Positions 24,126-62,321 of a DNA stretch of 64,000 nucleotides are shown piece after piece. Source of the DNA: Psammoneis japonica (lineage: Eukaryota). The notes beneath the pieces were generated by a model, which saw only the letters and a list, made by a program, of their open reading frames with translations, was not told where the DNA came from and searched no databases. A program made the position numbers and the translations under genes. Within the stretch, counting starts at the first letter, position 1. Each line of letters opens with the position of its first letter. The stretch lies in the NCBI GenBank assembly GCA_008632985.1, contig QPGO01000074.1, forward strand, positions 124,001-188,000. The letters run 5' to 3'.

Positions 24126-24163
24126 NNNNNNNNNNNNNNNNNNNNNNNNNNNNNNNNNNNNNN
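24126..24163. other. Assembly gap (N run) followed by a G run
   Basis: 38 N characters. Confidence 0.98.
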
Positions 24164-41224: not shown

Positions 41225-43836
41225 TTAGATGAAGAAGAAGGCACCGCTGAGAGCCATGAACACCACCGTCGTCACCTTCTTGACGGAAGCGCTAGATCCC
41301 TGCTTGTCATCCAAGTTGAAGACCATCTCAAACGCAGCACTGCCAGCGGTGTCATCGGGCTCATCGAGCTTCCTGACCTGCTTGCTCTCGTCTCCTTCGG
41401 GTTCACGATAGAGAACATTGGCACGAAGACGACGTCCGGTATCAGTGAAGGCCATGACAGCAACTCCATATGCGAGCACATCAGCAGGAAGGTCGTCGAC
41501 AAAGAACGCCGAAGTCATCTGAGTACGAATGTTGCACTTGTCCCCATTGTACGCCACGGCAGTCAATGCATCCGGATCCCCGTCGGAGATGGGGGTCCTC
41601 GTAAGCAATCCCTGCTCAAAGACCAGAGAATCGATTCCGACAAAAACAAGATTGGTGGCGTTCGTTTCGAGGCAAATGTAGACGTCGTCTCCCTGCGTCA
41701 AAGTCTCGGCAAGACACGTCAAAGACACATCACACTGACAGGCGAACACGTTGTAATCCAAGTCCGCGTTCTGGTTGAGCAATCCAGCGTCCGTACGCTC
41801 AAGATCGAGGACTCCCGACACCGTGAAACCTTGGGTCAAGTCGATGGTAAGAATGATCTTGGTCTCATGGAAGTGAACCGAAGTCGCGATATCGTCGTCA
41901 TCATCGTCGAGCATCAGATCAACGCGGATACACAAGCTGATAGTTCCTCCACCAACGTCAGTGTCATTCCAGACTCCACTGGAGGTAACGGTATCCTGCT
42001 TGATATCAAGGGCAACGTCGAGAGTTCCATGCGAAGGAGAAGTAGGAGTCAAAGTCTTGGCCACTCCAACAACGGTATCGGGGACAGCGGTGAGGCAGTC
42101 CGACTCGTAAATCACGACGGTGTTTTCGCGACGAGTGATGTTGTAGTTGAACTTGATCTCCTCGGTGTCAGAGGCATCGTTGAACGCCACAACCGCATCG
42201 TCCAGCCTGAAGATGTCCCACGAGAACTGATCGACGTTCAAGTCAAGGTACGAGCTCGGGGCGGCGGAAGGACTAGCCGACGAGGAAGGAGGAGCGGAAG
42301 GCTGCGAAGACGGGGCAGGGCTTGCCGTTGGGATGGAAGAAGGTGCCGAAGACGGTTCCAAGGACGGTGCTTGCGAGGGAGAGCTGGTAGGAAGGGCCGG
42401 TCCGTCAAAGACACGAACACTGCCAGTCGAGAAGCCACCGTCATCGTCGGCCCAGGTAGCTCCTCCCGCGAGACGAACACCATCACCAGTCATGGAGACA
42501 CTGAAACCAAATCGGTTCTGATTGGCTTCCCCTTCGATGTCATCTCCCAGCTGCGTCCAAGCACCGGAATCAAACTCGAAAAGCTGGACCCGACCCTTTT
42601 GGTTGCTGAACTGGTAGGAGGAAGCGGCGATGCGAGACCCGTCGTCGGAGATGGCCACGGAGCGACCAAACCTGTCGTTATCGTCTCCTTCCATGGCTGT
42701 ACCCTGAATGACCCAAGCGCTGCCATCGTACTCGTAGACTTCCACCGCTCCACGCAAAGTTCCGCCTCCATCGCTGAAGGGCGACCCAATGATCAAGGAA
42801 GAACCACTGCCACTCAGGTCAATCGAAAAACCGAGCTGCATTCCAGCGCTGGCTCCAATGATGTCCGTACCAACTTGAGTCCATGAAACGCCGTTGTACT
42901 CGTAGACTTGGACAAGTCCGGCTTCCGTATTTGCACCGTCGTCAAACTTGAAGGCGGAAATCGCAATGCGGTTGCCATCCGTGGAGAAAGCAGTGCTCGA
43001 GCCGAAGCGACCGCCCGCGGCAGTCCCTGCAAAGGATCCGATGGCATTCCACGCCGTACCCGACCACTCGAAGACTTGGACGAGTCCAGCGCTTACGTTG
43101 TCACCCTCGCTGCTAAGCGCCATGCGGGTTCCATCCGGAGACATGGTGACGACCTCACCATCTTGAGTACTCGCACTAGCAATGTTCGCACCAAGTTGCG
43201 TGGCAACCCCACCGGGGCTGATATCGAAAACCTGAGCGTAGTTGGGTGAAGCATCGTTACGACGGAGAGCGATACGAGCACCATCGGCGGAGAGCGAAAC
43301 GTACTGAATCTTCTCGTTGAGAGCACCGGTGGTGGCAGGATCGTCGGAGCTCGACCAAAGAAGGTCCCAATCAGTACCGTTGTCATCGTAGAGAAAGATC
43401 CCGCCGCCATCCTCGTTCGGAACGTCGTGGAGGGGGGATCCAACAACGAGGCGTGTGCCGTCGGCCGACGAAAGGTCAACAACCGATCCGAACTCGACAT
43501 CGTCAACCCCACCGTTCGAAGAGGGCGTGCCGAAAATCGTATCGCCAATCTTGGTGAAACCCGTAGGATCCAAACGACGAAGAGACGAAGAGACCGCCGA
43601 AGCGGTGCGAGACTTGAAAGGATGCTGAAGTAGAATGCGACGTGGATAGCGGAGAAACGTGAGTGAAAGCGTAGAACGATGACAAAACACAACATCACGA
43701 CGACGAGACGGCGGGAAGAACACGTAGAGTACAATGCAGCACTTACCAATCCGTTCAAACCATGCGAGTCCTGCGACCCAGCAACCGCATTGGTTGCCAA
43801 TAAGGCCGTCAAGACAGAGGGAACGAAGCGGGGCAT
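41225..43836 (-). CDS. Secreted/surface protein with FG-GAP-like beta-propeller repeats and a Pro/Ser linker; exons 43836-43747 and 43624-41225
   Basis: Signal peptide; repeated FG.S..LS.DG.R.A.G/S...G.VQVFE...W..G units; PSSAP linker; RRL/RKL motifs; hydrophobic C-terminus. Confidence 0.85.
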
Positions 43837-44038
43837 CGAAGAACTTTTCAGAAGAGGTTTAACTTGCGGCGTAAAGAGCAAATTATGAGAGCAAGGAATG
43901 AGGAGACTGAATGAGCAGTCACGGGAAATTCGCCGACATGAGCAGTCTCCGTCCGTAGAACTTGTACCAGCTTCTACGAATTCCTATCTCAACTGACAAA
44001 TGCGGCGACCGTTTCACTCCAGAAATGGAAAATCTTTT

Positions 44039-44357
44039 GTACTGGAAGCAACGTGAATTTCACGGATTCCTACTGTAACGGCAGGTTTTTTCATGGTAAC
44101 GGCCGCTAGACTGCAATGTACCGGAAGCTACGTAAATGCCACGGATTCCTACTGAAACGGCAGGTTTGCTCCATGGGTAACGGCAGCTACTAGAGTAAAA
44201 TGTACCGGAAGCTACGTGAATGCTACTGATTCCCACCGAAACGGCAGTTTTTTCAAAAGGTAACGGCAGCTAGACTGTCATGTACTGGATGTCACGTGAA
44301 TGCTACGGATTCCCATCGAAACGGCAGGGTTTTATCGATGGTAACGGCAGCTGGTAG
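44039..44357 (+). repeat. Degenerate tandem repeat, 4 units of 79-84 bp
   Basis: Units start gtacyggaag/atg at 44039, 44118, 44202, 44282; each carries two AACGGC motifs. Confidence 0.9.
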
Positions 44358-45051
44358 GGTTCAGCGTGCCTTCTACATCTCAGGGAAACGGCAGCCCAAC
44401 AACGGGGTCATTGCCGTAAAGCTTCGTATATTCAGTACGAGTTCCCATGGTAACGGCGGTATGCATGGTCATTGCATGCCGCGGCGGTGTCAGCCTCGGT
44501 GACGTGTCTCCCTTTTTTCCCTCCGACATGTTTTCACAGACCCAAGGGGCAGAATGAAAGACAACTGCCATGTCATTACAAATGCCTTCTGGCTTGGTCA
44601 TATTATACCATACCATCTGGATGGGCTGTACGATCACCATCAGCATTGGGAACCGATCGTCAATCAATGCGCATCCGACTCCGTTCCTTCTGTAATTATT
44701 CACACGTTCAAGTCTTTCGGCACAGGTAGAACCGAGTCGAGAGAAGCGTTGCCATTTATGATATTCATCTAAACGGCGGGGGGTTCAGCCCCTTGTTGGC
44801 ATCGCCTCGCGCATCGTGTTGTCGGCATCATCACGCTCCGACTCCCTCGACTGGTCGTCTTTCGGTATTCAGTGTATGAAGTTTAGCTATTTGTGCTGTT
44901 ATCTTATCAAGAATCGAGGCGAGCGAATGAACTCAAACGAGTTGGTCCTTAGAATAATGCCGTATAGAATAAAGAAGCTACTAGTATTCATATGTTGATC
45001 TACATCGTTCAACCACAATGTTTGTACAAAAATAGTACGGTCTCATTCCAT

Positions 45052-52085: not shown

Positions 52086-53965
52086 TCAGGCATTGTCATT
52101 ACGCAACTTCTCCACAACATAACCAGCACCGTCGTCACACATTGTGACCACAAATCCAGCAACAGGCCTCTTGTCTGCTCCGTCCTCCATTGTGCGACGT
52201 GTTTGAACATGTCCTGACAAATGCTCGTGAGATTTTGTGATAAAAGCAGGTGTTGGAGTATTCTGAACTTGTTTCAGTTCCAGTGTGACTACACAAGTCG
52301 CCGAACTGAATGTGACATCTGTCCGTTTTCCAGTCAGCGGCAAAATGTCCTCTTGAGTCGTCTGCACACTGCCTTTTAGAATGTCATGGGCCTCGTTGAT
52401 GACGTGCGACTGGAACTGAAGCTCCAAGATGTGATTGTCCTTGTCTGAGGAAGCCCAAGACATCAAACTTGCCATGTTGTTTTTCGAAATGGAAGTCACA
52501 AAGTCCACCAAAATCTCTTCACCTTTGTCGCAGAGATCTTCAGTGGTTGTGAGCGAAGTCAATGTTTCGAGGGATGCTCGCAGCGTTCTCAGCAGTGGTT
52601 CAAGGAGGTTTTCACGGTAGAAATCTGAGGTGATGGCGAATGTTGGATTGGTTTTCGATCCCGTTGATGACACCACTCCGAGGTGGACAAAAGCGTCAAG
52701 CAGTCACCGATGTCGATGTCTTCCCGCAATGGATGCTCCAAACTGAGTCCTTCGTTGAGCTTGTAGCCTTTCACTTCACGCCTTTCAGCCAGCTCATTTA
52801 CCACGCACCGAAGGTTCCAAGCATTTTCAAGGACGTTGAACATGGAAGACGGGATTGGTTCCCGGCATGAGCTTCCTGGCAAGGCGCCATCATGCAAGAA
52901 GCTGGCCCGAGAAGAAGGACTCCTGAGCAACTTGTTCATCAACGAATTGACCAAGCCTGTGTGATGGAGGGAGCTCCCCCCGAGAAAACGAAGGTTGTTG
53001 AAATGGCATTTGATCTTTTGGGAGGCAAGCTCAAGCTCCCCTTCTTTGAAGGGTGCATGCTCGTGGATCTCATCAAGCACACCACGAACATCAGCGTCAG
53101 TTGATCCAACAGCATCTGCCATGTCTTCCTCAAACGCAAGCGAGGCAACCGTAAGACCACTCATCTCTTTTGTGCCAATTGGAGTGATCCCCGTTGGCAA
53201 TGTTTTCACGTGGTCCAACTGCTCCAGGGCAACCTTGACAGCCCTGAAAAAAGAAAAGTGCGATCCGAACAGCACTGTGATGTTTGCGTTGACCTCCTTG
53301 TAGAGGTTGCGGCCATGCTCAGGAATTAGTCGCAGCAGGCCTTCCCGGATGGGTTGGTCGCATTCGTCAATGAGAATCAGCAATCGCCCTTGCAAAGAAT
53401 GCACAGCTGCACTCAGATTGCCAACCACCGTGCCAATTTGTTGATCGGCGATTTTGACGCCCACAGAAAACCTCTCGCAGGTTTGCTCCAGTTGCGGGTT
53501 TTGCGTCAACACGTAAATGACTCGGTGTTTGACAGCACTTGCAGTTGCCTTGTTGATGCTTTTGCAGACATCTTCCCATGTGCTCCTCTCACCATCTTCA
53601 ATTTGAGCGGAAGCGACGCCAAAGTCTAAGCGCAGGACAAACCAATTGTTCCCATCACCCTCGGACGGCGAATGACGCAGATCGCTGTCAATGTTGGAGC
53701 TTCTGTTCACCGAGAACAATTCGTCCGCAAGGGAGAAAAGCGTTGTTTTACCCAGTTGCATCGGGCGAGTGAACACTGCGGCATTGTCGTCGTGGTTGAA
53801 CATTTTCTCCAGAAACATGCTGTTGTCGCGGTGGCCACGGTCTTGACGATAGATTGCCGAAGCACCGTTCTGGTGTCGGCCAGGGAATCCAAAACTGGCT
53901 TTCATCCTTTTCGCTGATTCTTCATCTCCTGCATGAGATTCTTTGCTTTCACTTGAAGCGCTCAT
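52086..53965 (-). pseudogene. AAA-ATPase-like + PD-(D/E)XK nuclease gene, TpA-hypermutated, frameshift near 52680
   Basis: VFTRPMQLGKTT (Walker A), LILIDECDQP (IDEYD read as IDECD), FFRAVK, TGITP, KRTDVTF...TLELKQ. Confidence 0.8.
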
Positions 53966-54623
53966 GGCATCCTCATGCTTGGCTCTTTTGACGACTGGTT
54001 CTTCTTCATTGCAATGGGGGGTTGTGAGAGGCTCTCTGATCTCTGACCCCCACGTCTTGGCAAAGTGCGTTGAGCTTCAATGTTAACATCCACATGGATG
54101 TGCACATTTCCACAAGCAAAAATCCTTGTTCCATGCAGCTCCCCCAACAAATCTCTGACCACCAACATCCGAGGGCATGGCAGAGCACTTTTTGGAAGAT
54201 TGCGCACACATCACGAAAACAACATGCATTTTCATGACGACTCGACCATGATGATTGCCGGCCGCAGCGCGGCCATGGTGCCATCTGTCCGTCTGTCTGT
54301 CTGCATGCGAACTCAAGAACCGAACATTCTTCAATGTCCCGTTGAGTGTCTCAATGACTTGTTGCTCCTTGAAGCAAACTTCTGTGCCACACTTACGTCA
54401 GCAGCTGCAAGATTCGGGAGATTCGAATGACCGGGATTGTTGACACCTCTCGAAGAAATTCTGTGACAGAAACCCAAACACTGTGGCTGCAGTCAATCGC
54501 AGCTTTTCCCATGATTTTTAGAAAGCATTCGTGGACAACTTATCAAGACCGTTCACTGTGATCACACTGTGTCTTGTTCTCTCTTTCTCCTTTCTTCATT
54601 GTGCATTCTTCACCTTAAACGCA

Positions 54624-55547
54624 ATGTCGCATTTGGTGAGAGCTTCACTGAGAGCACCGTGTTTTGTGTGCAAACCAACCTTCAAACACGGAGATTTGGA
54701 CAAAGTGAAACTCGTGCAGAACTGCGACGATGGTGCCAAGAAACTGAAAATGTGTCCTCAATTCACTGGCAAGCACGGCATCGAGTGCTCACTCTACACT
54801 GCAGAGCGTTTTGAGAACTGTGCCGAGCATTTAGATTGTGATGAAGGACCTGAAAAATTCACCCATTTTGAAGAAGTGTCAGAAGACAACGCTCAAGATG
54901 TGTGGAGCAATTTGGTTTCAGGTGTCGCGGAAGCAGATCGGACCATGGCCAGGTTTGACACAGAAATCGCACGCTTTCATCAGCGACACTGTGATCATCA
55001 AGCGCGTGGTGCGATGTTTGAATTTTTGAAAAATTCTTCCAAACCTTTTGGTGATTCTCCTCGCGAGCATGCTGGCAGGATGATTCAAATGTCGCGTTGC
55101 GCCAACAAGCTGCCTGGAACTGAACCTTTGCTCAATGAGCAGCAAACCAAGAACATTGCATTCACGGGCATGCCGATGACATGGAAGCAGAATTGTGTGC
55201 GCACTGGAAAGGATGTCAGCACTGATTCTTTGGAAGATGTCATTCAACACATGTCCAATGAGAAAGGATTTGCTGATCAGAAAGGTGCTGCCAAGCCTGG
55301 CAATGATTCCAAGAAGCGCAAGGCTGGAGATGCGGAGTCTGCCGGGAACAGGAAGAAGTTTGGCCCCGACTCTCATTGTCGGTTGCACAAGGATTCTGCA
55401 GCACCTCATCTGTGGCAAAATTGCAGGGAGAATCCCAAGAGCCTGAACTGCAATCCAAATCCTCATTTTCAGAGAGGTGGCCGAGGTTCGCCAAGTGCAG
55501 GCCAAGATGCAGGCCGTGGACGAGGTCGAAACCCATGTTCAGGCTGA
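54624..55547 (+). pseudogene. gag of gypsy element A
   Basis: KPFGDSPREH...MP.TWKQ, zinc-knuckle-like CRLH......HLWQNC, GRG-rich tail. Confidence 0.7.
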
Positions 55548-58500
55548 GGAAATTATGGAGGCCGATTTTATGGTCCTCAGAACGCCAGCTGTGCTGGACG
55601 TGGACGTGGCGATGGCGGACACACTCCCAATGACAGTTTTGGACGTGGTCAAGGCGGACATGGCCGTGGTTGCAACCAAAACAGCATGGGCCGAGGATGC
55701 GGTCCACAGAATTTGCCTCAAAATTTTCACGCGAATCAAAATCAGGTGCAGAGTGGTTCAGGAGAACCAAATGCTCATCCAGCTCAACGAGCTCCTCCGA
55801 CTGATGCTCAGTCACAAGAATGGGGTGCAGATGTGCGCCATTTCGACATGGCAGGCTGTGGTCCGCCAGGAGGTCCTGACGAGACGTCAGGAGGAACGGA
55901 TGTCGGATGAGGTCCACATCCAAGAGGACCTGGATTATGATCCAGTTTGGAGTGCTGCTCCAGTCTTGGCGTCAGCTTTGAAGTTGACAACACCATTGCC
56001 ATTGACACAAATGCACCAATTGAGCACGAAATCTTTGTGTGACACATGTTTGTCACATGGAATCGACAGCGCGAAAAATCAAGAAGAGCCGATGGGGTTG
56101 CTTTGTGCTGGTGTGCCGGCACCCAAAACAAAAAACATGAATTCTAACATGGCACCTGCATCAGTGCTTGCATGCAAACAAATGAACGGAGCTCACTCTT
56201 CTCGTTCATTGAGAGTGTCATTTGATTCAGGCAGCATGACTGCTCTCATTCACGAGCGATGTTTGGCGCGTGGAGCTGCTCCAAGTCCACTCAAGAAAAC
56301 AGCAGCATGTGGTGCAGCTGCAGGACCAATGAAGAGCAGCAGAACAGTTGGTTTGGAGACAACAATGCTGCCTGAATTTGACAGATCATGGAGCATTGAT
56401 TTCCAAAAAGCTCTGATGTTTCAAACACCGTGTTGTTGCGACGTGATTCTTGGATCGGATTTTTTGGCCAAGGCTGGAATTGATGTAAATTTCTCATCAA
56501 GGACAGTCAAGTGGTTGGACAAGTCCATGCCTGTGAAAGAACTTGCCTTTTGGGACAATGCAGAGAACACTCATTTTGCTCTTGCAGGTCCAGAAGTCGA
56601 AGAAGAAATCGACGCAGTCGAGTTCCATGCATTCGCCATGCAAATTCTGGACGCCAAGTGTGAGTCAGCATCTCTGGAAGAAGCAGCTAAGAGGCAAACA
56701 CATGTGTCAAGAGAGCAACAACCGGAGTCGCAACAAGTGCCAGCCAAGTTCCCCAAAGTGTTCGACGGAAAATTGGGTCGACACCCACACAAATTGGTTC
56801 ATTTGGAAATCGACCCTAGCGCGATTCCGGTTCATGCTCGACCGCACTCAGTTCCAAAGGTTCATGAGGAGGTTTTCAAGAAAGAGCTTCAGCATTTGGT
56901 TCAGATGGAAGTGCTGAGACCATGTGGTCCCACCCATTGGGCATCTCCTTCATTTGTTGTTCCTAAAAAGGATCAACGAGTGCGGTGGGCATCCGATTTT
57001 TGCACGCTCAACAAAGCGTTGAAGAGGTTGATCTGTCCTTCACCAAGAATGCAAGACATTGTCAAGAAGAGAAAAGGGTGCAAGTGCTTCACCAAGTTGG
57101 ATCTGTTCATGTTCCATTGTGCTTTTGAGCTGGATGAAGAATCCAAGGAACCATGTGCCCTTGTCACTCCTTGCAGCAAGTTTCAACATTGTCGGCTCGC
57201 GATGGGTTTGAAACCAGCGGCAGATGTTGCTCAAGCAGTTGTTGAAGAAGTGATGAATGAGCTTGATGCAGATTGTTTTGTTGATGATGTTGGTCTCTTC
57301 TCAATGGTTTGGTCTGAGCATTTGGCAGCATTGAGTGCCGCATTGCAACATTTGGAACAAAACGGTTTGAAAGTGAACCCGCTCAAGTGCGAGTGGGCCG
57401 TTCAAGAAACTGATTTTTTGGGACATTGGATGGCTCCAGAAGACGAGCAGCTCGAGGAAAATTTGGGCCCGGAATTGAACACTCCATTCTGCACCATTCA
57501 AGATCAAGAATTGGTGGATTGCTTCTTGAATTGTCCGAGTCTGGAAGAAATGCAACACCCCTTGAATTGTCCTGACACACAAAGGTTTCAGTTTGAAGAT
57601 TGTGAGCTGAATCAAGAGCGGCAGAGGAACCCGCTTCGATTTCCGACTCGATGCGTCGGTGGAGTTCCATTGATTTGTTGGAGGCCTGAAATCAATGCTC
57701 AAGAAAATGACTGGAAAATTGCTTCACCAACTGCTTTGTTGGCGCCTGTGGTCAGGTGGCATCATCAAGTTTTAGGGCATTGTGGCATGCAAAAGCTCTG
57801 TTGCACGATTCATGCGCATTGCTGTCATCCGTTGTTGCGCCGATTGGTCGAAAATTGTCATTGCGACATGTGCCAAAGGAACAAACTTTGGGGAGTTGGA
57901 TGTGGTCACTTGCCACCAAGAGAAGCTCCTTTAGTTCCGTGGGATGAAGTGGCCGTTGATTTAATTGGTCCTTGGAAAGTGCAAGTGCAAGAACAGGAAG
58001 TCGAATTTAACGCATTGACGGCAATTGACGCTGTTTCTAACCTTGTGGAATTGGCTCACATTGACAACAAGACTTCAGATCATGTGCAGATGAAGTTTGC
58101 CAATTGTTGGTTGGCAAGATGTCCGAAACCAAACCGCTGCATTCATGACAAGGGCGGCGAATTTGTTGGTGAGCCATTTCAGATTCTGTTGGCGAGGGCT
58201 GGAATCAAAGACGTGGAAACCACCACTGGAAATCCTCAAGCCAACGCCACTTGCGAAAGAATGCATCAAACAGCTGGCAACATCATTCAAACCACAGTCA
58301 GGGGACATCCCCCTTGCAATGTGACAGAGGCTCAACACATCGTTGACAACGCATTGGCCACAACCATGCACGGTTTACGGTGTGCCACCTCAAGAGTTTT
58401 GGGAATTTCGCCAGGAGCTCTCATTTGCCAGAGAGACATGTTCCTTGATTCACCTCTCATTGCAGATTCAACTGCCGTTCGGAATCGTTGGCAAGTGTTG

Positions 58501-58803
58501 ATTGATGACAACTTGCATCGGCAAAATCTCAAAAGACGCTTTTTCGACTGTCGTGTCGGGCAACAAATTTTGGTCAAAACAGACGATCCCACCAAATTGG
58601 AAGAAAGATCTTTTGGTCCCTTTCCTGTCACACAGGTTCATGCAAATGGAAGCGTCACCATGCAAAGAGCACCTCATGCATTTGAAAGAATCAACATTCA
58701 GCGCATTTTGCCGCATCGACTTCAGCATGATCAAATGGATTGCGATTCAACGCATTCGCATGAATTGCGGAAGGGAAGAGTGAAGCAAACTTCTGCATCA
58801 TAA
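55477..58803 (+). pseudogene. pol of gypsy element A (protease, RT, integrase; RNase H deleted), open but saturated with missense changes
   Basis: FDSGS, DVILGSDFL, WASPSFVVPKKD, FTKLD, RLAMG, CFVDD, VNPLKCEW, VDLIGPW, HDKGGEF, NPQANATCERMHQ, GPFPV. Confidence 0.92.
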
Positions 58804-59016
58804 TTGCATCAGCAGCTGCAAGATTCGGGAGATTCGAATGACCGGGATTGTTGACACCTCGAAGAAATTCTGCGACAGAAACCCAAACACTGTGGCTGCA
58901 GTCAATCGCAGCTTTTCCCATGATTTTTAGAAAGCATTCGTGGACAACTTGTCAAGACCGTTCACTCCCATGAGAACGTTCTGGTTTCTATGAAGAATTC
59001 TTGTTGTGTGTCTTGA

Positions 59017-59514
59017 CCCTTCAACCACCAGGGGAGCAAATCTCCACGGGTGGAGATTTGCTCTGCTTGAGGATGTGTGACGTCTCATGCACTTTTACAA
59101 TGACATGATGAACACAGCAGAAAAATGTCATGTCCTGTGCAATCTGCATGTGGTGTGCCACGTGCATTTGCTTGTTGGGAGCAAATCTCCACCGGCGGAG
59201 ATTTGCTCCCAGGGTGTGGTGTTGTTGCTCCATTTGTGACAGTGATTCATGAAAACCTCAATTGCTGAAGGTTGAGATTTGGTTCCTCTCCATTCACAGA
59301 TGGAGCTTGCAAAAAACCCGGCGTTGAAAGGCGACATTGAACTTTCTCAACCACAAAAAGGGCGCCTCCAGATTTTCGGCGAGCGTGCGTTCCAGAACAA
59401 AATCGCATGAACAAAATGTTGTGCACATCTGAAATTGCTTCATTTGCCACATTTGTGACACAAGCGAGCAAATCTCCACCCGCGGAGATTTGCTCAAGTC
59501 CAGTGGTTGAAGGG
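59017..59514. mobile_element. piggyBac-like MITE in the 5' LTR of element B; TSDs read TTGA and TCAA (ancestral TTAA)
   Basis: TIR CCCTTCAACCAC / GTGGTTGAAGGG; the empty site in the sister LTR is TTAA (62146-62149); three internal gagcaaatctcc-ggagatttgctc hairpins. Confidence 0.88.
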
Positions 59515-60536
59515 TCAATTGCGAGACTTCCAGCACATGTTGTGCGTGTGTCCTGCGAGGACCCTTGACAAGAGCCTTGAGAAGTGGTTCTAAAGCTCTC
59601 CTTTAATCAGGCTCACAACTCATCTGTGAGCCCAATTTGCTGCAAGCACATCTTGTCCATCAATCTGTCAACTGTCACTTGATGCCACACTCGGCACAGC
59701 AAATTTGCTCCCCGTTTCTGAACACCCCATCCTTTGCTTCCACGAAGCCTCCAACATCTGCAGCAAGTTCTGCGAATTGTCCTGACCAGCCATGTCAGCC
59801 AAAAGCTGTCCTTTCCGTCTTGTTTGCTCTGAACGAACAAATGAAAAATGTCGCAAAGATCGTTTTGTGTCACTCCAGTCACCTCTCGATCCCAAAAACC
59901 CTGGTGGTCTCAAGTCTGCCATGGAATTGCGTGTGTCAGACAGTGAAGACCCTGAAGACACTCTCGCTTTCTTCAAGCGATTTGAAGAGATTTTTGTCAT
60001 CCTCAACATTGCAGAAGGAGCTCAACGTTTCCGTCTGATCAACCACCTGTTGGCTGGCCAACCATTGAATGACTGGACTGCTGTTGTCAAAGAGCATGAA
60101 GAACGCGATCAAGACACTTTCCTCGCAGCACGCGAAGAATGTCTCCTGACTGAGATGACCCGCAACATTGCGGTGGACACCAAAGATTGGCTGCAGTCCC
60201 TCAGGAAACCACGCAATGATGCCGCACAGTCATTTCTCCACTGCGTCCATCAGATCAATGATCTCATTCCATTCATGCCACTGCCTGCAGATGAAGAAGA
60301 TGCACAGCCCATTCCCAAGTTCGCAGAAGTGGAGTTGACTGCTGTCATCCGAAAAGCATGTCCCAAATCCTGGAAAAATTCTCAAGTCAAAGCAAACTTG
60401 CGCGGACTCAATCTCAGCAATCAAGTTCAACACTGCGAGGGTCTGCGCAACATTGAGAATTCAGATTCATCCTCACTGCCTCATCAAAACTGCAATGCAA
60501 CCGCACAGCAATCCAAAACAGAGTCAAGCAGCAAGG

Positions 60537-60932
60537 GACGCGTTCCAGACGTAGGTGGGAATCCGTGTGACATTGGGCCCGTAGACTTCTACGTGCGAGC
60601 TCCGTAGTAAAATTATACGGTAATTATAATGTCAATGATCGCCAACAGAAAATGAGGCAATTTTGCGAACGCACAAACTCGCACATGATTGAAGTACATC
60701 ATTTTTTACTTAGCCAGTTACATTCTTCAGACATTGAAGAATGTAACTGGCGCATATTTGTTTCTATAAATTTGTTATATAAAACGTCTGGGGCTTCGCA
60801 AAACAGCGAGTCTGGACAATTTTTTTTAAATATCACACGTAGAAATCTACGTACGAAACATACGACGGATGATAAAAATTATTGTTGTCACACGTCAGCA
60901 CTACGAGCTCCCACCTAGGGCTGGAACGCGTC
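60537..60932. mobile_element. Unmutated MITE with 24-bp TIRs and 4-bp TSD AAGG, inserted in gag of element B
   Basis: gacgcgttccagacgtaggtggga versus inverted gacgcgttccagccctaggtggga; aagg at 60533-60536 and 60933-60936; removal rejoins ORFs 59792 and 60882 (SSK-DQQAL). Confidence 0.9.
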
Positions 60933-62321
60933 AAGGATCAGCAAGCCTTGCAACAAAAATCCAACAACTCCAGCTCGAGTTCCCAAACAAACAACACATG
61001 TCCAATCCATGGAACAGTCCATCCAAATGGACAAGAGTGCAATGTTGTTCACCGTGAGCGAGAAATCTGCCAACAGCGACATCAACAAAGGCTTCGACAT
61101 GTCCAACTCTCAGAAAACACCAGCTCAGACAACCAAACTCAGAGCCAGTCGCAACAGCAGCCAACTTGTTGCTGCAATCTGTGCAGCAGAAGCAACCAAC
61201 AAAGAAACAATGAAAACAACGCGATGGAAGATCCTTCCAGCACCTGCAATGATCCCCCAGACGATCTTGGAAGCGCGCCATCTGAAACCATCAATGAAAT
61301 CTGTGATCTTCATGATGAAATCAATGAGATTGAAAGTCAGAACACTCAAGAATCTCAACAAAATGTCAGCGCAGATGTGCAAGTGCAACTCACCTCATCC
61401 TCCACCTCTCACACAGAGCAGGCACTCAGTCTCCTCGACTCTGGAGCCAACAACAACTGCGCCAAGCACGAAGCCCTTGAAAAAATCTCCCATCAAATCA
61501 AACCAATTTCTGCACCGGTGCAAAGCCGCTACAAATCAGTTCAAGTTCAGAACAAGGCAGCACCCAACATTGCATTGCCTGAATTTTCTCAATCGAAGAC
61601 TGCTGCCATCGAAGCGCACGTCAAAGATGGTGCAATCGGTCGTCATGCCATTGTTGTCGGTCGCCGAACGCACAAACAACTCAGCATTGTTCTGGATTTC
61701 ACGACTGCCACAATGACCTGTGGCAACGTCACCATCCCCATGAAAACAGAAAACAAGACTCAACATGCCACCTGTGAAGACTGGCATCATGTCAATCGAA
61801 AATGTCAAAACGCCCCACTTCAAGTCACCTCCACAAGTTGGCTCAAGCCTGAACTCCTCTCCACCAATCACTCGAAGTCCAAACTTAACTCTGCCAATGG
61901 CACAGTCACCATCCAGAGCTCTCCCAATGTCACTGAACGAATCAACATCCATCGTCTTCACCCTGTCTTCTAGACTGTTCAGTTGGGGAAGCGAGTGCCG
62001 TGGTGCCATCTGTCTGTCTGTCTGTCTGTCTGTCTGCATGCGAACTCAAGAACCGAACATTCTTCAATGTCCCGCCAAGTGTCTCAACAACTTGTCACTC
62101 CTGTGAGAACGTTCTGGTTTCTATGAAGAACTCTTGTTGTGTGTCTTAATTGCGAGACTTCCAGCACATGTTACACGTGTGTCCTGCAAGGACCCTTGAC
62201 GAGAGCCTTGAGAAGTGGCTCCAAAGCTCTCCTTTGCATCTGTGAACCCAACTTGCTTCAAGCATGTCTCATCTGTCAACATGTCAACTGTGTTTCACTT
62301 GGTGCCACATTTGGCAATGAT

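Follow-up and report, generated by a model that had tools for sequence, protein, structure and literature searches.

How can the polyprotein of a retrotransposon lose almost every tyrosine and stay open over more than a thousand codons? The question is raised by a window of 64,000 nucleotides (nt) from the pennate diatom Psammoneis japonica (contig QPGO01000074.1, positions 124,001 to 188,000, assembly GCA_008632985.1), in which the stretch 55477-58803 of the forward strand is free of stops and holds 1108 codons with one Tyr, 49 Cys and 47 His. An initial annotation had read this stretch as a pol gene inactivated by missense through the change of TA to TG or CA, and its description of an open frame with a single Tyr proved accurate. 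The flagged stretch corresponds to pol in a dead Ty3/gypsy long terminal repeat (LTR) retrotransposon, hereafter called element A. The case for TpA hypermutation in this diatom retrotransposon is real and strong, and the process is a variant of one described recently; its footprint and timing, as set out below, are regarded as almost certain.

The flagged open reading frame (ORF) contains 15 TpA dinucleotides, an observed/expected (O/E) ratio of 0.07 compared with 0.43 in positions 1-52000 of the window, together with a CpG O/E of 0.68 and ratios of 1.5-1.6 for TG and CA. Among the best 120 of 267 database homologues of the protease-reverse transcriptase (RT) region (609-1939 amino acids, aa), Tyr accounts for 2.6-5.1% of the residues, and even at the lowest of these rates the probability of one Tyr or fewer in the flagged ORF is 1e-11. 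None of these 120 proteins was Tyr-poor (<1.5% Tyr), which leaves room for shorter or unlisted proteins of that kind. The check named in the initial annotation, alignment to intact diatom gypsy pol, took the form of an alignment with 102 homologues, 18 under 900 aa being left out. At the 14 columns that are present in the window and where Tyr is conserved in at least 70% of the homologues, the window reads eight Cys, five His, one Phe and no Tyr. Conserved columns of Trp (11 of 11) and Asn (13 of 13) are intact, as are those of Cys and Gln. Conserved Leu is retained at 39 of 50 columns (three Ser, two Pro among the rest), Ile at 10 of 16 (two Met, two Val, one Thr), Val at 10 of 16 (three Ala) and Thr at 8 of 14 (three Ala).

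Comparison within the family points the same way. Thirteen sister copies of element A, at about 72-92% identity, were recovered from the genome (91 Mb in 597 contigs searched), and sisters not covering a site were left out of its count. TG or CA stands in the window at 117 of the 156 columns with TA in a sister, and 39 of the 84 Cys or His codons of the window have Tyr, or both Cys and His, among the sisters. All nine motifs listed in the initial annotation are present in the ORF. Tyr itself occurs in sisters at YPLP (five), FY (three), PY (one) and Y-CVG (one), and at GCKC, FQHC, LGHW and ARCP the sisters carry a mixture of Cys and His at the same codon. The proposed conversion of motif Tyr to Cys or His thus stands at the conserved columns that read Cys or His, but it does not extend to the catalytic motif CFVDD, whose Phe, judging from the alignments, is native to the family: Phe at the Tyr position of YxDD, preceded by Cys, is found in 13 of 13 sisters, and FIDD in 6 of the 102 homologues. 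The Val of CFVDD is the sole TA-derived residue of the motif, copies reading TTT GTT or TTC ATT. At 58723, where the window reads CAG, the sisters read TGG (three), CGG and TGA, with one gapped; these codons fit the TAG>CAG change suggested initially and support the origin of CAG from a lost TAG. No near-intact copy of the element A family was found among 40 of 65 candidates scored, and the direction of change was therefore set with the sisters, the homologues and a second gypsy family.

This second family comprises one near-intact copy (pol of 1164 aa with 33 Tyr) and 20 relatives, 19 of them at 92-94% and one (L082, 86% match) left out of the totals. The possibility raised in the initial annotation, that active relatives share the unusual residues, is answered in the negative by the near-intact copy. 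In the 19 sisters of that copy, 2374 of 2994 TpA sites have been lost, giving 1327 TG, 1018 CA, 20 TT, 5 CG and 4 other products; the proposed change of TA to TG or CA thus accounts for 2345 of the 2374. CpG was changed at 367 of 3520 sites and other sites at 221 of 51,177 (0.4%), the latter a lower bound, with 49 columns in which the reference was possibly changed and 63 shared columns left out. Per base, TpA changed at roughly 180 times the frequency of other sites (0.8 against 0.004, the latter again a lower bound). Loss of TpA per copy ranges from 66 to 86% in the 19 copies, and no intermediate copy was seen.

The two strands behave alike within each context: in 8 of the 19 copies, TAC was changed at 166 of 311 sites on the sense and 147 of 292 on the antisense strand, and TAA at 39 of 248 and 60 of 315, respectively. 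Both TG and CA occur among the copies at 99 of 148 sites, and concordance between pairs of copies gave a mean z of -0.06 (sd 1.19, 171 pairs); the copies changed independently. Synonymous changes numbered 876 against 866 expected, and missense changes 1469 against 1507; there is no selection on the TpA changes. Runs of changes on the same strand were absent at distances of 2-25 nt (0.52-0.54 against 0.50-0.52 under the null). Independence, strand symmetry, the expected ratio of synonymous to missense changes and the lack of same-strand runs together indicate, therefore, that the changes arose after insertion, singly and without selection. Mutated neighbours 26-60 nt apart (L063-L081) lay on the same strand slightly less often than expected (0.461 against 0.501; a share as low arose in 0 of 300 shuffles, with four distance bins compared). 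A model based on proximity to CpG was rejected, as kept/expected ratios of 1.6, 1.4, 1.05 and 1.5 at 0-4, 5-9, 10-19 and 20+ nt followed no trend.

Traces of the same timing are found in the window. The two LTRs of element A differ at three TA sites, four CpG bases and two other sites (alignment read by eye). The uninterrupted LTR of element B, the retrotransposon into which element A inserted, reads CTCCTGTG at the place of the left duplication and CTCCTG at that of the right one; the target duplication of element A shows T>C only in the copy with A following, the left copy CTCCT, followed by T, being unaltered. Similarly, the empty site TTAA of an older element with terminal inverted repeats (TIR) has become the flanks TTGA and TCAA. 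The rate also depends on neighbouring bases. A C or T after the target A raises it 3.3-3.7-fold, whereas T or C at the second and third positions upstream reduces it, and sites in T- and A-tracts survive. In the TA-poor blocks of the window, the surviving TpA sites comprise 43 YTAR and 3 RTAY, the reverse of normal DNA (172 and 355).

The window contains sharply bounded TpA-poor blocks at about 4.0-5.5, 13.5-16.5, 21.5-28.5, 34.0-35.5 and 52-64 kb, and the long host ORFs between them contain 2.1-4.0% Tyr, which disposes of the altered genetic code that the initial annotation had named as an alternative. One host gene, for an aldo-keto reductase, has proteins of Seminavis, Cylindrotheca and Epithemia among its best named matches, as befits a pennate diatom. 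In the window and in the loci fetched from elsewhere, the changes are confined to mobile DNA and host genes are spared, apart from one low-copy AAA-ATPase-like frame. In this frame, 29 of the 42 TA sites of its paralogue L093 are TG or CA. Many paralogues of the family (PF09820; L093-L101) are present, some intact and flanked by TA-erased DNA, others eroded. As the TIR element and the AAA-ATPase-like frame are both affected, the process is not limited to retroelements.

A young 396-nt miniature inverted-repeat transposable element (MITE) provides an internal control. It ends in GACGCGTTCCAG and is flanked by a 4-nt target duplication whose sequence varies between copies; the genome gave 1327 candidates, 40 of them scored at 97-100%. 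Its read depth of about 96,000 compares with about 60 for unique DNA (about 1500-fold), and empty-site joints were seen in read run X1. In 12 of 12 copies examined, which as the best-scoring ones are biased towards young insertions, the MITE keeps 28-31 TA. The 11 copies other than that of the window (L051-L061) all lie in TA-erased flanks with 0-7 TA per 550 nt, suggesting that the MITE inserts into, or is tolerated in, TA-erased domains. TA>TG/CA makes up six of the 11 private changes carried by 11 young copies (p 0.003). The combination of a TA-normal, high-copy MITE with an eroded low-copy neighbour points to a process that is gradual, domain-wide and still active, and is not triggered by repeat pairing. 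Along one copy (L024/L073, G000 C5), loss of TpA is graded: one half is heavily and the other lightly affected, as spreading from the edge of a domain might produce.

The survival of open frames follows from the codon table. No A>G or T>C change converts a sense codon into a stop; a TA change always removes TAG, removes TAA half the time, and also alters codons for Ile, Leu, Val, Thr and Met. Tyr is turned into Cys or His because all Tyr codons start with TA. The initial statement that such changes make no stop and remove TAA and TAG is thus right for sense codons and for TAG, but TAA can become TGA and remain a stop. All 25 new stops in the 20 copies of the second family are CGA>TGA, and five copies have no new stop. 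The 861 amino-acid changes of eight copies include the replacement of Tyr by Cys (160) or His (70) at 230 of 290 codons. A frame of at least 500 codons, with 0.4-1.4% Tyr, is kept in 11 of the 20 eroded copies, and one retains the entire 937-codon frame with 5 Tyr instead of 28. Many copies, then, stay long and open with about 10% missense, and stops come from the slower CpG decay. The dense six-frame ORFs predicted initially were found to a modest degree: over six frames, six TA-poor stretches have 2.4-3.0 stops per 100 codons and four normal stretches 3.2-4.0, the difference being small because TGA remains.

Eroded frames still exceed Pfam cut-offs, as seen for RVT_1 in element A (55 bits), the AAA-ATPase-like frame (36 bits) and a Tyr-free 365-codon C5-methylase frame elsewhere (152 bits). 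Mis-annotation of Tyr-free frames as genes is therefore plausible, and an open pol frame does not mark an element of P. japonica as active, since Tyr-free frames rich in Cys and His still pass these cut-offs. Dating by LTR divergence would overstate ages. Among other long Tyr-poor frames, two TA-erased C5 DNA-methylase frames (L116 and L117; G000 C301 and C297) have 0-1 Tyr; they are possibly viral or transposon-borne genes struck by the same process.

The closest known system is that of Bigelowiella natans, in which TpA>TpG/CpA hypermutation of integrated nucleocytoplasmic large DNA virus (NCLDV) and virophage DNA was measured de novo, at about 1000 times background and in only some lines (bioRxiv 10.64898/2026.01.13.699255). 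The same preprint notes TpA-poor coding sequences for RT, endonuclease and DDE proteins and proposes the deaminase ADAT2. Both cases share the TpA target, the TpG and CpA products, the involvement of both strands and of chromosomal DNA, and the foreign or mobile nature of the sequences; the spectrum of the second family is of the Bigelowiella type. In contrast, P. japonica is a stramenopile, 66-86% of sites are changed per copy with O/E down to 0.07, and LTR elements, TIR elements and a low-copy neighbour are affected. The neighbour-base rule (TA-pyrimidine fast, T/A tracts slow) and the protein consequences seen here were not found in the text of the preprint. The process in B. natans was measured de novo, whereas that in P. 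japonica is deduced from the comparison of copies. No report of TpA hypermutation in a diatom was found among the papers listed in searches of the open-access literature.

In repeat-induced point mutation (RIP) of ascomycete fungi, transposons likewise acquire dense transitions, C>T at CpA, with gain of TpA and of stops; the process is triggered by duplication, is tied to the sexual cycle and needs RID. Several C5 methylase genes are present in the P. japonica genome. Dense post-insertion transitions in transposons, independent mutation of copies and the sparing of genes are common to both. The direction, however, is opposite: TpA is removed and no stop is made, a direction fixed by the near-intact copy and the homologous proteins. 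Nor is duplication the trigger, as a 396-nt MITE with >1000 near-identical copies has hardly been changed, whereas a low-copy neighbour is eroded. CpG decay of methylated transposons shares the TG and CA products and the domains, and is the source of all new stops in the P. japonica copies; it differs in its substrate and is about 14 times slower per base in these copies. Editing by APOBEC or ADAR acts on one strand, at the RNA or cDNA stage, and cripples retroelements. Hypermutation cripples retroelements here too, but on both strands and after insertion; the strand symmetry and the differences between LTRs depart from the one-strand, pre-insertion pattern with identical LTRs that such editing leaves.

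The footprint is that of a process of the host that works on inserted, chromosomal DNA of transposon-rich domains: TpA was converted to TpG or CpA, one base per site and on either strand, in the course of many cell generations, with a final loss of about 80-95% of sites. In the account favoured here, the adenine of 5'-TA(C/T) would be deaminated by a host enzyme of the tRNA-deaminase type brought to silenced chromatin; once one strand had changed, the partner adenine would follow C and no longer be a target. Adenine deamination would explain the pure transitions, the strict dependence on a 5' T and the single change per palindrome. As a whole, this account is considered somewhat probable; for the deaminase step taken singly, belief and doubt are balanced. 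Deaminase frames in the genome (own motif reading and Pfam) comprise TadA-like, ADAT2-like, two ADAT1-like, and guanine-, dCMP- and RibD-type frames, the ADAT2-like gene having Asn in the motif GCRNDRFGG. One locus (L045, G000 C79) joins a deaminase domain to an apparent 2-oxoglutarate dioxygenase, so labelled by reading. A wider proposal can be put forward only tentatively: a DNA adenine editor, encoded by the host and directed to silenced chromatin, would be common to diatoms and chlorarachniophytes and would disable transposons for good by saturating 5'-TA(C/T). Such an editor would be the adenine equivalent of RIP, killing by missense and leaving long Tyr-free frames, and a natural base editor of adenine in double-stranded DNA.

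Several points weigh against host adenine deamination. The near-intact reference copy is itself slightly eroded (49 columns). Retention of sites is bimodal in a manner that the context model does not explain, and the Tyr codon of the RT motif YIDD retains TA in 18 of 18 eroded copies (L062-L081), where that model gives about 0.55 per copy. The equation of TpA-poor domains with silenced chromatin would follow from the loss of CpG and from work on Phaeodactylum, where, in the passages of one report that bear on this, DNMT5 is responsible for CG methylation of transposable elements (PMC9998398). Genome searches with PF00383, PF14437 and PF02137 returned only ordinary-looking deaminases, and no deaminase fused to a chromatin domain was found among the frames read. 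For a preference of TadA for TA or TAC, no supporting passage was found in three papers, and one of them reports no obvious context preference of TadA editors in rice. Sequence cannot discriminate an altered A from an altered T opposite it, and a Pol iota-like gene is present in the genome.

The rival that fares best is nonetheless held to be unlikely: the same footprint and timing could be made by an error-prone Y-family polymerase, Pol iota-like, placing G opposite the T of template TpA in silenced domains. Human Pol iota favours dGTP opposite T, according to the relevant part of one study (PMC3031609). Five Y-family genes were found in the P. japonica genome, one of which (L122, G000 C22) has Pol iota as its best solved relative (E 2e-26, against 2e-14 for kappa and 1e-12 for eta), with two others eta-like (L123 and L125; G000 C18 and C19); the changes are, moreover, almost all transitions. 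Against such a polymerase, A>G occurred at 44 of 11,309 AA sites compared with about 40% of TA sites, a 100-fold contrast that differs from the WA pattern of Pol eta. Neither the same-strand runs at 2-25 nt nor the gain near CpG that repair patches would give was observed, and no paper was found that reports a strict TpA context for Pol iota.

Quite unlikely is a reading in which silenced DNA is marked at TpA by a modified base, such as a methylated adenine or an adduct of thymine, and mutation follows as a by-product when that base mispairs or undergoes deamination, as in CpG decay. The palindromic target, the single change per site, the loss of CpG in the same domains and the DNMT5 work in another diatom are in keeping with it. 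TpA has been lost far faster than CpG (79% against 10%), and no modification is known to act in this way at TpA.

Very unlikely, given its structure, is the reading of element A in full as one 1108-codon pol gene inactivated by missense alone. Pfam places RVT_1 at residues 495-651 of the flagged ORF, Integrase_H2C2 at 751-803 and rve at 838-920; as RT precedes integrase, with an RNase H region between them in sisters and homologues, element A is assigned to Ty3/gypsy, with which its paired TG...CA LTRs and 5-nt target duplication agree. The first ~185 codons lie outside the pol frame because of a frame-changing indel at 56028-56032: relative to the window, one base is missing from eight of the nine sisters that cover the site, and the ninth carries two extra. 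The lone Tyr is upstream of the protease, as had been noted, but its codon (55936) belongs to the off-frame gag end, where TTA TGA (Leu and stop) is read one base off; the gag frame reads ...GPHPRGPGL-stop at 55938, and the pol frame has no Tyr. A 705-nt segment with the RT end and RNase H is absent relative to sisters L032, L033 and L034, the gap recurring against L035-L037, and both RNase H families of Pfam match the C196 relative and neither matches the flagged ORF. The region built of ORFs 54522-55547 and 55548-55910 can be labelled gag from its position and its likeness to the C196 copy, with no Pfam match. Its two internal stops (55545 and 55908) stem from CpG decay, the corresponding codon of the sisters being CGA, CAA or TGA; at 55938 the sisters read TGA, TGG or CAA.

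With two gag stops, a frameshift near 56029 and a deletion, element A is not autonomous and, contrary to the initial annotation, was not inactivated without stops. The pol frame proper is stop-free over 897 codons, its run-on through the polypurine tract into the 3' LTR is as first described, and missense may have been the first of the lesions; one copy of the second family did keep its whole frame. The rule that frames stay open despite TA loss holds for the class, not as the sole lesion of element A. Like other diatom Ty3/gypsy elements, element A has TG...CA LTRs, a 5-nt duplication, gag followed by protease, RT, (RNase H) and integrase, and a polypurine tract, and its best homologue is 57% identical over the searched region; unlike them, it has no Tyr, a family-wide FxDD catalytic motif and, in the window copy, a deleted RNase H. 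Gag and pol lie in one frame with a single stop between them in two gypsy families (window 55935-55943; TGA CAA in the C196 copy, L031:4687-4695), which suggests stop read-through.

ADAR-like editing of element RNA, or RT error before insertion, is scarcely credible even with two ADAT1/ADAR-type deaminase genes in the genome, as RNA editing would give A>G on the sense strand only, whereas T>C is equally common per context, TA sites distinguish one LTR from the other and one target duplication from its partner, and DNA-only elements are affected. Artefact or ordinary causes carry as little credence: CpG decay also gives TG and CA, 171 columns of the element A family show TG, CA and CG, and run X1 may be the source sample of the assembly, but a TA-normal MITE sits within TA-erased DNA, contigs from run X1 cover 30 of 30 bins at >=95% likeness, host ORFs and the near-intact gypsy copy use Tyr normally, and most TG and CA derive from reference TA rather than CG sites; assembly error is thus unlikely, and plain CpG decay, an altered code and RNA editing can be dismissed.

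Should the process prove to be a regulated pathway of the host, it would join fungal RIP as a second genome defence that works by mutation, in a group of major primary producers, and would carry the single report of 2026 beyond the viral inserts of a rhizarian to entire transposon families of a diatom. The set of copies yields a rate, a fingerprint of neighbouring bases and two enzyme candidates that can be tested. Deamination of adenine in DNA seldom occurs in nature, and the enzyme would for that reason be of interest to genome editing.

The features of the locus are collected in the table. The 5' LTR of element B lies in three pieces (54284-54369, 58965-59014 and 59517-59604), having taken element A and the TIR element; its 3' LTR is at about 61996-62235, and the MITE is also inside element B. 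The gag and pol remnants of element B were identified by reading only, with no Pfam match.

Features of the P. japonica window around element A (positions within the window)
Feature	Position	Strand	Evidence or remark
AAA-ATPase-like frame beside the elements, TA-eroded, low-copy	52589..54076	-	PF09820, 36.3 bits; contig depth about 60
Element B, LTR retrotransposon hosting element A	54284..62235	+	repeat families D5, D6, D8; alignments
Left target-site duplication of element A, CTCCT	54365..54369	+	LTR flank alignment
5' LTR of element A (TG...CA)	54370..54555	+	94% identical to 58781-58964; matched in 5 sister copies
Putative gag frame of element A (start approximate)	54624..55940	+	internal TGA at 55545 and 55908; end TGA 55938-55940
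Off-frame read of gag end and gag-pol junction, first ~185 codons of flagged ORF	55477..56029	+	only Tyr codon at 55936
Pol frame (protease region, RT, integrase)	56032..58722	+	897 codons, 0 Tyr, 45 Cys, 39 His, no stop
Reverse transcriptase core	56959..57429	+	PF00078, 55.4 bits, cut-off 29.6; catalytic motif CFVDD 57274-57288
Junction of 705-nt in-frame deletion (RT end and RNase H)	57431..57442	+	at short direct repeat
Integrase zinc finger and catalytic core	57727..58236	+	PF17921, PF00665, weak matches, both below cut-off
Probable former pol stop, now CAG	58723..58725	+	frame runs on to TAA 58801-58803 inside LTR; homologues end here
Polypurine tract of element A	58766..58780	+	purine run immediately 5' of 3' LTR
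3' LTR of element A	58781..58964	+	paired with 54370-54555
Right target-site duplication of element A, CTCCC	58965..58969	+	last base T>C where A follows
Older TIR element (ends CCCTT...AAGGG), TA-erased	59017..59514		flanks TTGA 59013-59016, TCAA 59515-59518; 1 TA in about 500 nt
Young 396-nt MITE, TA-normal (31 TA)	60537..60932		4-nt target duplication AAGG; internal control

Elsewhere in the window, four copies of a repeat of ~80 nt lie at 44027-44360, beside the gene at 41225-43858, and a run of 38 N at 24126-24163 falls within a TA-poor block.

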